From an uncultured Bacilli bacterium (GTDB taxonomy: Bacteria; Bacillota_I; Bacilli_A; RF39; UBA660): 64,000 bases of DNA. The stretch is from assembly GCA_944363715.1 (NCBI GenBank), contig CALVUX010000003.1:8155-72154 (forward strand). Reading direction: 5' to 3'. The notes beneath the pieces are model-generated. The model made no database searches and was not told the DNA's origin. It saw only the letters and a program-made list of their open reading frames with translations. Position numbers and translations under genes: made by a program. Shown here in pieces: positions 4,931 to 40,554 of this stretch. Position 1 is the first letter of the stretch. Every line of letters starts with the position of its first letter.

Positions 4931-6064
4931 ATGGGAAACGGACTAGAAATGGATCAATTAGCGAAAATAAAAGTAATCGGCTGCGGTGGCGGCGGCGGTA
5001 ATGCTGTAAATAGAATGGTAGAATCAGGGGTTAAAGGTGTAGAATTTATAGTTGCTAATACCGATTTACAAGTATTAAATAATTCTAAAGCTGATGTAAA
5101 AATTCAATTAGGAGCTAATTTAACAGATGGACTTGGAGCTGGATCTCGTCCTGATATTGGTAGAGAAGCTGCTTTAGAGTCAAAAAAAGAGTTAGAGGAT
5201 GCTTTAACTGGTGCTGATATGGTATTTATTACTTGTGGAATGGGTGGAGGAACAGGAACAGGTGCTGCTCCTGTTGTTGCAGAAATTGCTCAAGCTCTTG
5301 GTGCCTTAACAGTAGCTATTGTCACTAAGCCATTTACTTTTGAAGGAAAAAAGAGAATGGATAATGCATTAAAAGGATTAGCAGAACTTGAAAAACATGT
5401 TGATACCCTAATTGTTATTCCAAATGATCGTTTAAGAGAAATTATAGATAAAACAACACCGATGTTAGAAGCATTTAAAGAAGTAGATAATGTTTTACGT
5501 AGAGGTGTACAATCTATTTCAGATTTAATCGCTGTAGTAGGACTTGTTAACCTTGACTTTGCAGATGTTCAATCAGTAATGAAAGATTCAGGACGTGCTA
5601 TTATTGGTATTGGTATTGGTATGGGAGAAGATAGAGCTTTAGAAGCAGCTCAACAAGCGGTATCTAGTCCATTACTTGAAACTAGTATTAGTGGAGCAAC
5701 AGATGCTATTATTAATATAACTGGTGGTGTTAACCTTACTCTATTTGAAGCAGAGCAAGCTGCTGAAGTAGTAAGAGCTGCATCAGGTAATGATATTAAT
5801 ACTATATTTGGTTCTGTTATAAATGAGAATTTATCAGATGAAGTTATTGTTACAGTAATTGCTACAGGATTTAATAAGAAAGACCAAGGTGAAACTAAAC
5901 AACCAGTCTTCTCAAATGCTGCTCCTTCTAGAAGAAGTCGTGAAGAAGTATCATATGTTGCAACAATGCCTCAAAACAATAATGACGATGATGATGACGA
6001 TGGAGAGTTATTAGATGACACTGATTATGATTTTCCACCATTCTTAAGAGATAAAAACTTTTAG
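4931..6064 (+). CDS. ftsZ: Cell division GTPase FtsZ
   Basis: Tubulin signature [13 protein letters not shown] and N-terminal [17 protein letters not shown]. Acidic linker and conserved C-terminal peptide DFPPFLR. Strong RBS aaggagg. Confidence 0.98.
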
Positions 6065-37834: not shown

Positions 37835-38689
37835 ATGGAATCAAGAAGTGAGTATCAAAAAAAGAAAAGAAGAAAGAAAAAATTAAGATTTAGAAAATGG
37901 GTAATAGTAGTTTTTTTGATTTTTTTCCTTTCTATCTTTGCTGTTTCTATTAATCAAGTATATCAATGGTTAAAAGATAATAAAGAAATAGAAAATATAT
38001 CAGATGATGTAGTTAAAGATACTAAAGTAAAAGAAAAAGAAGATACCAAGAATACAGAGAATGTTAATCCTCCAGAAGATTTATCTAATGATTATTGGGA
38101 TTATATCAAAATGAATCTTTTAGAAGTTGATTTTAATGAGTTACTTAGGAAAAACCCTGATACAGTAGGGTGGATTGAGGTAAAAGGAACAAATATAAAT
38201 TACCCTATTGTCCAAACTACTGATAATAGTTATTATTTAAATCATGCTTTTGATGGATCTAAAAATGAAGCAGGTTGGGTTTTTATGGATTATAGAAATG
38301 ATTCTGTTAACTTTAATCAAAATACTATTATATATGCGCATAGTAGATTGACAGGATCTATGTTTGGAAGTTTAAAAAATATTTTAGAAAGCTCCTGGTA
38401 TACAAATAAAAACAATCATATTATAAGACTTTCTACTCCAACTGAAAATACAATGTGGCAAGTATTTAGTGTTTATACTATTCCTAAAGAAAGTTATTAT
38501 ATTACGCCTAATTTTAATAGCAATGAAGCCTATCAAGAGTTTCTAAATACAATGAAAAGCAGAAGTGAAGTAGAGTTTTCTGCAGAAGTTAATACAAATG
38601 ATAAAATATTAACTCTATCGACATGTAAAGATAATTTTGGAAATAGAGTAGTTATGCATGCTAAGTTAATAAAAAAAGAGTTAAGATAA
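37835..38689 (+). CDS. srtB: Class B sortase
   Basis: N-terminal anchor. INYPIVQTTDNSYYLNH, IIYAHS and TLSTCK motifs. ATG at 37835 follows RBS aaggtga. Confidence 0.85.
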   Translation: MESRSEYQKKKRRKKKLRFRKWVIVVFLIFFLSIFAVSINQVYQWLKDNKEIENISDDVVKDTKVKEKEDTKNTENVNPPEDLSNDYWDYIKMNLLEVDFNELLRKNPDTVGWIEVKGTNINYPIVQTTDNSYYLNHAFDGSKNEAGWVFMDYRNDSVNFNQNTIIYAHSRLTGSMFGSLKNILESSWYTNKNNHIIRLSTPTENTMWQVFSVYTIPKESYYITPNFNSNEAYQEFLNTMKSRSEVEFSAEVNTNDKILTLSTCKDNFGNRVVMHAKLIKKELR

Positions 38690-38741
38690 GGTTATAGATT
38701 TTATTTTTTGCATATAATATTAATATACTTGATATAGAAAT

Positions 38742-38770
38742 TTGACATCTTAAGATATTTAGTATATAAT
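38742..38770 (+). promoter_or_regulatory. Consensus sigma-A promoter driving the repeat array
   Basis: TTGACA (38742-38747), 17-nt spacer, TATAAT (38765-38770). Flanked by the 9-bp inverted repeat acttgatat/atatcaagt. Confidence 0.8.
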
Positions 38771-38781
38771 TAATATCAAGT

Positions 38782-38881
38782 AAATGTTCTCGCTTGTGGT
38801 TGGTGCGAGTAATAAATCATACCATTTTGTCAAATGTTCTCGCTTGTGGTTGGTGCGAGTAATAAATCATACCATATAGTA
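38782..38881 (+). ncRNA. Type III antitoxin RNA candidate: two abutting 50-nt direct repeats
   Basis: 38782-38831 and 38832-38881 are 47/50 identical (the first 44 nt are identical). Each unit has an internal CTCGC...GCGAG stem. Units begin with AAAU. Confidence 0.75.
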
Positions 38882-38887
38882 AATTAA

Positions 38888-38924
38888 AATTCCTTATTCT
38901 ATAATGAATAGGGAATTTTTTGTT
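38888..38924 (+). terminator. Rho-independent terminator between the repeats and the toxin gene
   Basis: aattccttattc / gaatagggaatt stem (one G-U pair) followed by tttttg. Confidence 0.7.
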
Positions 38925-39030
38925 TATAAGAAATTTATTAAATTTTAAAAAAATCGAATTTATGTATTGGCGAACATATTTTTAATGTAGTACACTTAAG
39001 TTACAAATATTAAGCAGAGGTGTTCGTCAT
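38925..39030 (+). promoter_or_regulatory. Solitary copy of the tnpB-element 5' leader/promoter module
   Basis: Aligns by eye with 24424-24523 and 24948-25047: tataag.aaattt...aaatcgaa...gtattgNNNaacatat...tagtacacttaagttacaa...gaggtgttcg..atgaa. Contains TTGGCG-18-TACACT (38967-38996). Confidence 0.65.
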
Positions 39031-39516
39031 ATGAAAATTAGAGAAGGATATGTTTACCATATTAAGGAAGAATATTTTAAAGATGTTAGAGATGAAAAAC
39101 TAATGAAAAATCACGAAGGTAATTTTACACGACCAAATTATTTTTGTATAAAACTAGATAATAGTGAAATATTGTGGTTTATTCCTATGAGTAGTAAAAT
39201 AGATAAATATGAGAAAATAATAGAAAAAAAGATAGAAAAATATAAAAAATGTGACACTATTGTAATCGGTAATTATAGAGGTAGAAAACACGCATTTTTA
39301 ATTCAAAATATGTTTCCTATAATTGCTAAATATATAGATCATATTGATACAGTTAACGGTAAAGCATTACAAGTACCATCCGAAACAAGACGTATAATAC
39401 TAGAAAAAGTAAATAAAGTATTTAAGTTAAAGAAAAAAGGTGTAAATTTGATTTTTCCTGATGTTGATAATATTAAAGGAATATTATTGAAAGAACTAAA
39501 AAAAGAAGAAAGTTAA
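39031..39516 (+). CDS. Type III toxin-antitoxin system toxin (ToxN/AbiQ/CptN-like endoribonuclease)
   Basis: 161 aa. N-terminal half (YHIKEEYFKDV....RPNYFCIKLDNSEILWFIPMSSK) matches the ToxN/AbiQ block (Y..YL..hD..V......RP.hGhhh.h....YhAPLSSPK) by eye. The promoter-repeats-terminator-ORF architecture is diagnostic. Confidence 0.7.
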   Translation: MKIREGYVYHIKEEYFKDVRDEKLMKNHEGNFTRPNYFCIKLDNSEILWFIPMSSKIDKYEKIIEKKIEKYKKCDTIVIGNYRGRKHAFLIQNMFPIIAKYIDHIDTVNGKALQVPSETRRIILEKVNKVFKLKKKGVNLIFPDVDNIKGILLKELKKEES

Positions 39517-39612
39517 TATTGATATTGTTTACATAAAAGAATAAATTATTATAATTTAGTTTACTTTTCTTAAATAATTTGTTATCCTTATAATAGAAAG
39601 GAGGAAGAAGTG

Positions 39613-40554
39613 ATGAAAAACTTAAAGAAAGGATTATCTATCCTAACATTTGCATTTGTTATGGTAATTTCACTAAGCGTTGTTAATGTTAATGCTGCTG
39701 ATTACGATTTAGCAACTGAAATGGGCAACCTTTTAGCTGGTAACCCTTTAACATTAACAGCAGAAGATTCATTGTCATATAATAATGAAGTGTGGTTTGG
39801 TGCTAATGGTCGTTTCACTATTAATAGTGGGGAAGTAACTTTCCAATATACTGGTGGAGTTGTTAATATTACTATTGATACAGCAGTTGGTAATAGTAAT
39901 GTAACTTTAAATGAAGGCAAACAATTTATTACACAAGTTGAAGTAGGAGCTGATAAAGCACCAGTTAATTTCACTATTAGTGATTCATCAATATTAAGTG
40001 TTAATGGTACTTTAGTAATTCCATCTGGTGCTGAAAGTATCATTGTTAATAATGGTAATCTTAATATTAATCAATCTGGTAGTCTTGAAATTAGAAACAG
40101 AGCCAATAACTATCAAGGAACAGGATTTCTTAATGTTTTTGGTAATATAGTTATTTATGGAGCTTCTGGAGATAATATTGGTAGTCAACAAATCAGGTTA
40201 CATGAAAATGCTAATGTTTATTCTGAAGCAGATATCTTAGATAATCTTACAATTTCTAAAGCTGATAGTGATACTAATACATATGAAATTGTTGAAAATA
40301 CCAATAATACTTATGAGTCTGTAACTGCTGATATAGGTTTAAGGGAATTTCCTTATGCATATACTGTAAAAGCTCAAGAGGTTGAAGAAATACCAGTAAC
40401 ACCTGGTGAAGATGAAACATCCCAAAATAATCCAACAGAAGAAGTAAAAAACGAAGAAAATCCAGAAACAAGTGATGGAATATTACTATTCTTAGGATTA
40501 ACAGTTGTAGGTTTTGCAGGTACAGCTTTAGCTTACAGAAGACTTCATAATTAA
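39613..40554 (+). CDS. Cell-wall-anchored surface protein with NPETSD sorting-signal-like C-terminus
   Basis: Signal peptide (..SLSVVNVNA). C-terminus is NPETSDG + hydrophobic helix + RRLHN. The class B sortase is encoded 1 kb upstream. Confidence 0.65.
   Translation: MKNLKKGLSILTFAFVMVISLSVVNVNAADYDLATEMGNLLAGNPLTLTAEDSLSYNNEVWFGANGRFTINSGEVTFQYTGGVVNITIDTAVGNSNVTLNEGKQFITQVEVGADKAPVNFTISDSSILSVNGTLVIPSGAESIIVNNGNLNINQSGSLEIRNRANNYQGTGFLNVFGNIVIYGASGDNIGSQQIRLHENANVYSEADILDNLTISKADSDTNTYEIVENTNNTYESVTADIGLREFPYAYTVKAQEVEEIPVTPGEDETSQNNPTEEVKNEENPETSDGILLFLGLTVVGFAGTALAYRRLHN

Follow-up and report, generated by a model that had tools for sequence, protein, structure and literature searches.

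The analysed window was a 64,000-nucleotide (nt) stretch of contig CALVUX010000003.1 (assembly GCA_944363715.1, positions 8,155 to 72,154 of the forward strand) from an uncultured Bacilli bacterium. Downstream of the sortase gene srtB it carries a promoter, two abutting direct repeats, an intrinsic terminator and a gene for a protein of 161 amino acids (aa), all in this order and on the same strand (Table 1). The locus was identified as very probably an intact type III (RNA–protein) toxin–antitoxin (TA) module of the CptIN family, with the repeats as antitoxin RNA (CptI) and the 161-aa protein as toxin (CptN). An earlier note, made from the sequence and a list of its open reading frames (ORFs), had proposed such a module. 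The promoter, the abutting repeats with their CTCGC/GCGAG stem and AAAU start, and the 161-aa ORF were all recovered at the positions given there; the hairpin and T-run terminator is present as well, with the correction that its stem begins at 38886 and not at 38888.

Table 1 Features of the cptIN locus; positions refer to the window
Feature	Position	Strand	Details
Sigma-70-type promoter of the cptIN operon	38742–38770	+	−35 TTGACA 38742–38747, 17-nt spacer, −10 TATAAT 38765–38770
CptI antitoxin repeat 1	38782–38831	+	50 nt, repeat finder
Repeat 1, S1 stem	38789–38793 / 38805–38809	+	CUCGC / GCGAG; recurs 50 nt downstream in repeat 2
Repeat 1, S2 stem	38796–38800 / 38821–38825	+	GUGGU / ACCAU; covariation
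Repeat 1, A-rich loop L2	38810–38820	+	UAAUAAAUCAU; between S1 3′ arm and S2 3′ arm
CptI antitoxin repeat 2	38832–38881	+	50 nt, abuts repeat 1
Intrinsic terminator between antitoxin repeats and toxin gene	38886–38925	+	14-bp stem 38886–38919, then T-run TTTTTTGTTT
Terminator-to-cptN spacer	38926–39030	+	holds Shine-Dalgarno GAGGTG 39017–39022, 8 nt before ATG
cptN, CptN-family endoribonuclease toxin, 161 aa	39031–39516	+	NCBIfam NF047359, 4RMO_A, AlphaFold2 model, Foldseek
Approximate cptIN cassette, ~0.87 kb	38690–39558	+	breaks in homology of L141 and L059, both without cptIN

In a consensus scan of 1.4 kb, the promoter matched at 12 of 12 positions and was top-ranked among 18 promoter-like sites; transcription would start at about 38777–38779, 3–5 nt ahead of the first repeat junction. 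The two repeats are identical at 47 of 50 positions (94%). All three mismatches fall within the last 6 nt, in the 3′ tail, and the part that forms the pseudoknot described below is wholly identical. AAAT opens each unit and occurs a third time directly behind unit 2 (38882–38885), so that both units are bounded by the same junction. Tandem Repeats Finder made no call at the repeats, as there are only two copies. The terminator hairpin, GC-poor but long, was formed in both the minimum free energy (MFE) and the centroid structures upon RNA folding and was the sole terminator-like site found in the region by consensus scan, with 0.3 expected. The promoter scan gave no second promoter for cptN on the plus strand of the spacer 38926–39030, and the ORF list held no frame of at least 40 aa on either strand over 38690–39030. 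The locus had been described as invisible to ORF calling, which is correct for the antitoxin RNA, to which the Rfam scan assigned no family, and incorrect for the toxin, whose gene is readily called and has a curated NCBI model. What looked like a hypothetical 161-aa protein next to a seemingly empty intergenic region of 340 bp can thereby be annotated as a complete, intact type III TA module of an uncultured gut bacterium of low GC content.

The toxin was assigned by profile search, which had been proposed in the earlier note. The NCBIfam equivalog NF047359 (‘type III toxin-antitoxin system CptIN family toxin’) matched residues 6–150 of 161 with E 3e-52 and 176.5 bits, against a cut-off of 90. 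The sole solved structure matched by sequence was 4RMO_A, CptN of Eubacterium rectale (CptN_Er; E 1.1e-24, residues 3–146). The Pfam family ToxN_toxin (PF13958) stayed sub-threshold and covered only the N-terminal 103 residues (E 4.3e-4); by Pfam alone the toxin would be left unassigned, since its 20.9 bits lie below the cut-off of 25. PADLOC gave no meaningful model match for the locus, only a weak hit to NsnC (E 0.0077). Homologues of the protein are numerous (427 at E<1e-5) and share many invariant residues. Those invariant across the 72 homologues aligned for modelling are intact in the window ORF, including G6–H10, S54 and the AFLxQN block.

An AlphaFold2 model was built from the alignment of these 72 homologues and reached a predicted local distance difference test (pLDDT) score of 90.5 and a predicted template modelling (pTM) score of 0.87. 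A model from 17 close homologues, which gave a pLDDT of 42.7, was not used for the fold search. Superposition on known toxins had likewise been suggested beforehand; with Foldseek against the PDB, the top match was again 4RMO_A (E 2.6e-12, template modelling (TM) scores 0.80/0.83, root-mean-square deviation 2.6 Å, 34% identity), followed by AbiQ (TM 0.68), ToxN of Bacillus thuringiensis (4ATO, 0.56) and MazF/CcdB (about 0.45–0.47). The predicted fold agrees with that of CptN, a Kid-like fold of a twisted antiparallel beta-sheet and four helices, with a short helix H4. The protein is thus CptN and not a generic ToxN/AbiQ-type toxin, ToxN and AbiQ being structural cousins only; the broader likeness to ToxN, AbiQ and CptN in the earlier note was narrowed accordingly.

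Related loci were collected by a scan of one genome per species, which yielded 58 loci, all from metagenome-assembled genomes of gut or rumen Clostridia and Bacilli. Co-occurrence of toxin gene and repeats was counted over the 54 loci in which 120 nt or more of the upstream DNA could be read. Repeats missing from orthologous loci that keep the ORF had been named in advance as evidence against a type III module; in an anchored search, two repeat units of 46–50 nt were found upstream of the toxin gene in 45 of the 54, and four more carried a different repeat type of 45/46 nt. In nearly all loci with enough sequence, the best upstream tandem repeat had roughly two copies of 46–50 nt and ended 45–155 nt before the start codon. 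A near-consensus TTGACA/TATAAT almost always preceded unit 1, ending about 10 nt before the first AAA junction, and a hairpin with T-run stood 3′ of unit 2 in 28/28 loci examined, with stem sequences varying by locus. The architecture is not due to chance, because the same order of promoter, repeats, terminator and ORF recurs in most of the 58 independent genome loci. The distance from repeats to start codon, about 150 nt in the window, was also long in L001, L012 and L016 (about 125–155 nt), and was about 57–66 nt in the majority of relatives; the surplus of roughly 90 bases lies 3′ of the window terminator and contains no detected promoter or ORF.

For the covariation test, 57 distinct repeat units were aligned to a two-stem H-type pseudoknot, in which the elements of repeat 1 run in the order 5′ tail, S1 5′ arm, S2 5′ arm, S1 3′ arm, L2, S2 3′ arm and 3′ tail. 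Standard pairs were formed in 95.4% of the cells of S1 and S2, compared with 32–57% when the 3′ partners were slid by 1–3 columns. Double changes occurred in six of the ten pairs, namely all five of S2 and one of S1, and the observed covariation score was reached by 0/500 shuffles. The outer S1 pair 8–29 alternates between C-G (35 units), G-C (13) and U-A (6), and two-sided changes in S2 include G-C/A-U at 18–44 and G-C/U-A at 19–43. The best-conserved part of the alignment is loop L2, UAAUAAAU, which is nearly invariant. Each CptI repeat RNA is accordingly predicted to fold as an H-type pseudoknot, with its pairing shown by covariation across the aligned units, which adds a covariation-backed consensus pseudoknot for the CptI subfamily with repeats of 49–50 nt. 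The Rfam E-value scan had its best hit in a sub-threshold PyrG leader placed on the terminator hairpin. Nested MFE folding of the precursor mispaired the S2 arms between the units and did not recover the two S1 hairpins, a failure without weight, since pseudoknots lie outside what MFE folding can represent.

Within a locus, compensatory changes in S2 often distinguish one repeat from the other (L002, L007, L010, L015, L017, L036 and others), for example GUGGU/ACCAU vs GUGAU/AUCAU in L002 and AUGG/CCAU vs AUAG/CUAU in L017, or CUGGA/UCCAG vs CCAGG/CCUGG. Where S2 diverges in this way, the pseudoknot of each unit is preserved, and pairing across units would become weaker; the two window repeats do not differ in their cores.

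Comparison with the crystallised antitoxin of E. rectale (CptI_Er) was based on the 45-nt sequence derived from the CptI-WT primer (Rao et al. 2015, PMC4627078), AAGUUUACCACUGACCGAUAUGUGGUAUAUAAAUGGUCGGGUUGA. Its layout is 5′ tail 6, S1 5, L1 2, S2 5, linker 3, S1′ 5, L2 9, S2′ 5 and 3′ tail 5; that of the window CptI is 6-5-2-5-4-5-11-5-7, in the same order of elements. The five additional nucleotides of the window repeat are thus one in the S2–S1′ linker, two in L2 and two in the 3′ tail. AUAAAU in the A-rich L2 is common to both RNAs; in CptI_Er this loop forms an A-minor twist, and A29U and ΔU30 abolish antitoxicity (PMC4627078). The systems further share a toxin of about 34% identity (TM 0.80–0.83), the order promoter, about two long repeats, terminator and toxin, an AAA at the unit junction, and a chromosomal location in a gut Firmicute. 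They differ in that their stem sequences are unrelated, SSK replaces SSR in the toxin, the junction reads GUCA|AAU in the window and UUGA|AAG in E. rectale, and the window system is known from sequence alone. The cptIN survey of Blower et al. 2012 listed repeats of 40–48 nt in 1.9–3.4 copies and could not align the CptI RNAs (PMC3401426). The locus belongs to a known family, with a repeat slightly longer than first described.

Likenesses to the other type III families are looser. ToxIN (Pectobacterium atrosepticum, Bacillus thuringiensis, E. coli) also has a terminator between antitoxin and toxin and a related Kid/MazF-like RNase fold, and its toxin processes its own repeat RNA into inhibitory pseudoknots, as would be the case in the window; it differs in the toxin family, in shorter (about 34–36 nt) and more numerous ToxI units and in its 3:3 triangular complex, and abortive-infection activity has been demonstrated for ToxIN and not for CptIN. 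AbiQ/antiQ of Lactococcus lactis (4GLK), a Firmicute system, supplied the second-best type III structural match (TM 0.68), whereas AbiQ is a ToxN family member of proven anti-phage activity and showed no sequence similarity to the window toxin in the searches used. TenpIN (Photorhabdus luminescens; PMC12283969) has long repeats of 39–57 nt in about two copies with a conserved A-stretch in the RNA, and its repeats are sometimes non-identical, as in relatives of the window locus; its toxin is of another family and matched the window protein in no search.

From these comparisons, the following mechanism can be proposed, in which leaky termination, self-processing, the closed ribonucleoprotein (RNP) and the release of the RNase are carried over from the family (PMC3401426, PMC4627078). 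A single strong promoter would transcribe the two CptI repeats; most transcripts would end at the hairpin terminator and a minority would run on into cptN, and this leakiness, presumed by analogy with ToxIN, would keep antitoxin RNA in excess over toxin mRNA. CptN, as an endoribonuclease of the Kid/MazF fold, would cut the precursor at the N-A|A-A-U junctions into 50-nt RNAs. The register is taken from CptI_Er, which is cut GA|AAG after A45 with a 2′,3′-cyclic phosphate left (PMC4627078); all three boundaries of the window units retain the AAA junction, as do those of the relatives, and cuts after the first A of each (38782, 38832, 38882) would release processed units 38783–38832 and 38833–38882. 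Each RNA would then adopt the H-type pseudoknot with S1 CUCGC/GCGAG, S2 GUGGU/ACCAU and the A-rich L2 lying along S1, and its single-stranded tails would block the active site of the toxin within a closed RNP, which is probably a 2:2 complex like that of E. rectale. Once transcription ceases or the RNA disappears, CptN would be free to cleave cellular RNA, and growth would be arrested.

The assignment to an intact CptIN module agrees across toxin sequence, fold, repeat co-occurrence and pseudoknot covariation, in line with the CptIN-like branch named in the earlier note, and has to be weighed against several points that speak against it. The window repeat is 2 nt above the 40–48-nt range of the 2012 survey. 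Ser54-Ser55-Lys56 aligns with the SSR of CptN_Er (the mapping of the Ser-Ser/Thr-Arg triad is our own reading of the alignment), so that the two serines are conserved and Lys56, nearly invariant in the subfamily, stands opposite the triad Arg. The residues that select the scissile adenine in CptN_Er, Asp81, Ser85 and Tyr104 (PMC4627078), align with Arg83, His87 and Asp106, of which the first two are nearly invariant and the third is invariant across this subfamily. The catalytic core looks retained; substrate recognition may differ from that of CptN_Er, given these three residues and Lys56 in place of those of CptN_Er. A frameshifted toxin is frequent in sister strains, and in E. coli no resistance to phages was obtained with CptIN, first for 6 and later for >200 coliphages (PMC3401426, PMC4627078). 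Toxicity, neutralisation, cleavage sites and stoichiometry at this locus and in the 50-nt subfamily would follow by analogy with the studied systems.

Some of these points could also be explained if the locus were CptIN by descent and now decaying, with an inactive or harmless toxin and repeats kept by inertia. In six independent sister-strain assemblies (L146–L151), cptN is split into ORFs of 67 and 68 aa because the A7 run at window 39224–39230 has lost one A, with both repeats intact, and the 90% protein cluster has 67-aa forms on 51 contigs, compared with about 26 contigs for the listed intact 161-aa forms. This frequency suggests that the population can do without the toxin, which may be decaying there, and the adenine-specifying residues that are not conserved in the window toxin point the same way. 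The window ORF, however, is of full length with the invariant residues intact, its repeats are identical throughout the pseudoknot core, and promoter, Shine-Dalgarno sequence and terminator are all of consensus quality; moreover, repeated independent knock-outs would be expected if the intact toxin is active and costly. A decaying remnant is hence considered unlikely, with a small residual chance. Even less probable, and very unlikely, is that the repeats serve a stand-alone RNase gene as another cis element, such as an array of protein-binding operators, a leader or attenuator, or a separate small-RNA gene. The lack of an Rfam family beyond the sub-threshold PyrG hit and the S1 hairpins missed by the MFE fold would fit this explanation, the latter without weight for the reason given. 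Covariation within the unit is not expected of a DNA operator, the unit architecture and the AUAAAU loop match the crystallised CptI (PMC4627078), the repeats accompany cptN in many unrelated genomic contexts, and in three CptIN systems that were tested, repeats of this kind neutralise their own toxin (PMC3401426, PMC4627078). An intact CptIN module thus remains the preferred identification.

As to its role, two possibilities may be envisaged, abortive infection and a stabilisation of the cassette that is post-segregational or addictive. The earlier note had regarded type III systems as abortive-infection defences, which is valid for ToxIN, AbiQ and TenpIN and could not be extended to CptIN, for which only toxicity, rescue and plasmid stabilisation are demonstrated. 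Stabilisation of plasmids by CptIN was observed in E. coli (PMC3401426, PMC4627078); cptIN_Er raised plasmid retention from about 50% to 100%, yet conferred no resistance to the >200 coliphages (PMC4627078).

The 2012 survey placed cptIN on chromosomes only (PMC3401426). Beyond chromosomes, three predicted viral contigs of IMG/VR (L138–L140) were found to carry a 43%-identical CptN in a complete module with two non-identical 46-nt repeats, and seven plasmids carry CptN relatives of 35–42% identity annotated as hypothetical proteins. On the small plasmid pCP346-91 of Clostridium perfringens (L152, NZ_CP075965.1 9083–9586), a 40% relative follows five alternating repeats of 47/50 nt. No match to CptN was obtained by tblastn in GenBank phages.

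The neighbours in the window are rnhB, topA, srtB, a surface protein, a NUDIX hydrolase and a P-type ATPase; the flanking genes are thus housekeeping or surface genes and form no defence island. These neighbours recur in just two of the 58 genome loci, L001 and L003, which indicates that the module sits in many contexts. Samples in which the exact locus occurs include ERR4096351. Contigs of the same population were found through SrtB homologues at 88–100% identity. In one of them (L141), topA and srtB are followed directly by surface-protein genes without cptIN, and its homology to the window (95–96% at nucleotide level) ends at 38679 and resumes at 39559; in a second cptIN-less contig (L059), homology ends at 38689. 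The module of ~0.87 kb is therefore a presence/absence cassette in a recombination-prone slot, and it is strain-variable within one species-level population. The insertion suggested in the earlier note is supported by this polymorphism, and does not follow merely from the position between srtB and a sortase substrate. Neither a mobility gene nor a flanking repeat belonging to the cassette was found, and from these strains gain and loss of cptIN cannot be told apart. A TopA scan of metagenomes for empty sites returned mostly relatives of ≤74% identity which also lack srtB and for this reason say little on cptIN. Together with the split toxin genes, the comparison provides evidence for a strain-variable cassette whose toxin is repeatedly inactivated in natural populations.

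The short stretch between srtB and the cptIN promoter (window 38690–38741 and equivalents) is an insertion hotspot. An insertion sequence with rve and HTH_Tnp_1 lies between srtB and cptIN in L142 (4356–5882), and a UPF0236 transposase with a 428-aa gene is inserted just 5′ of the promoter in L143 and L144.

Loss of an A from the A7 run may represent a recurrent toxin knock-out or phase variation. The two small ORFs behind srtB in L146–L151 were also considered as a separate TA pair; this was rejected, as they are the halves of the frameshifted cptN. A second interruption was found among the species-representative loci, of which at least 22 of 58 (L010, L012–L014, L017, L018, L020–L026, L028, L030–L034, L038, L042 and L044) have 0-frame stops at 138–148 aa through one extra C. 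The site, nt 408 of cptN, corresponds to window 39438/39439 between codons 136 and 137 and reads ...AAA CGG AAT... vs ...AAA GGA ATT... in relatives with a contiguous gene. Past the extra C, the +1 frame is stop-free and encodes the conserved C-terminus GINLIFPDVD..LL.EL, including the last helix; translation of this segment would require a +1 shift of the ribosome. Differences in this segment are distributed over the codon positions as 738/360/1316 and are thus biased to the third, and the ratio of synonymous to non-synonymous changes (1082:887) does not fall below that of the in-frame control upstream (744:865). The CGG at the site is invariant, although this codon is used only 0.17–0.23 times per 1000 codons in these genomes. 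The site looks like a candidate programmed +1 ribosomal frameshift at a hungry CGG codon. In the searchable literature library, no paper was found that connects ribosomal frameshifting to type III TA systems.

The identification of the window locus is left unchanged by this candidate, since its own cptN is contiguous. A tentative and rather doubtful extension would be that the window cptIN belongs to a CptIN subfamily with 49–50-nt repeats in which recoding or slippage at the CGG site and the A7 run adjusts how much toxin is made, the window showing the ‘fused, on’ state of a toxin otherwise checked translationally. If true, a type III toxin under recoding control would be seen here for the first time.

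Among the adjacent genes, the one 3′ of cptIN, which codes for a 314-aa surface protein (39610–40554), is hypervariable, especially over 39594–40431, when compared with L001, L003, L141 and L148; in L001, its product has 32% aa identity although TopA and CptN have 98% each. Other strains hold one or two different surface-protein genes in the slot, for instance a 440-aa Big_2 protein in L141, and SrtB is itself unusually polymorphic among strains (80–100%). No Pfam domain was found in the 314-aa protein. Its C-terminus (window 40459–40551) shows NPETSDG, a hydrophobic stretch and RRLHN, an NPxT-type sorting signal which would suit a class B sortase substrate. Different surface-protein genes in the slot are preceded by a promoter-like TTGACTTAAnyCTAAAnnTTTAGTATG followed by the inverted repeat GAAGATAAGG...CTTATC (L141 4415–4500, L142 6750–6830, L146 about 5215–5280, L059 7473–7563), which may be a shared leader or regulatory element.

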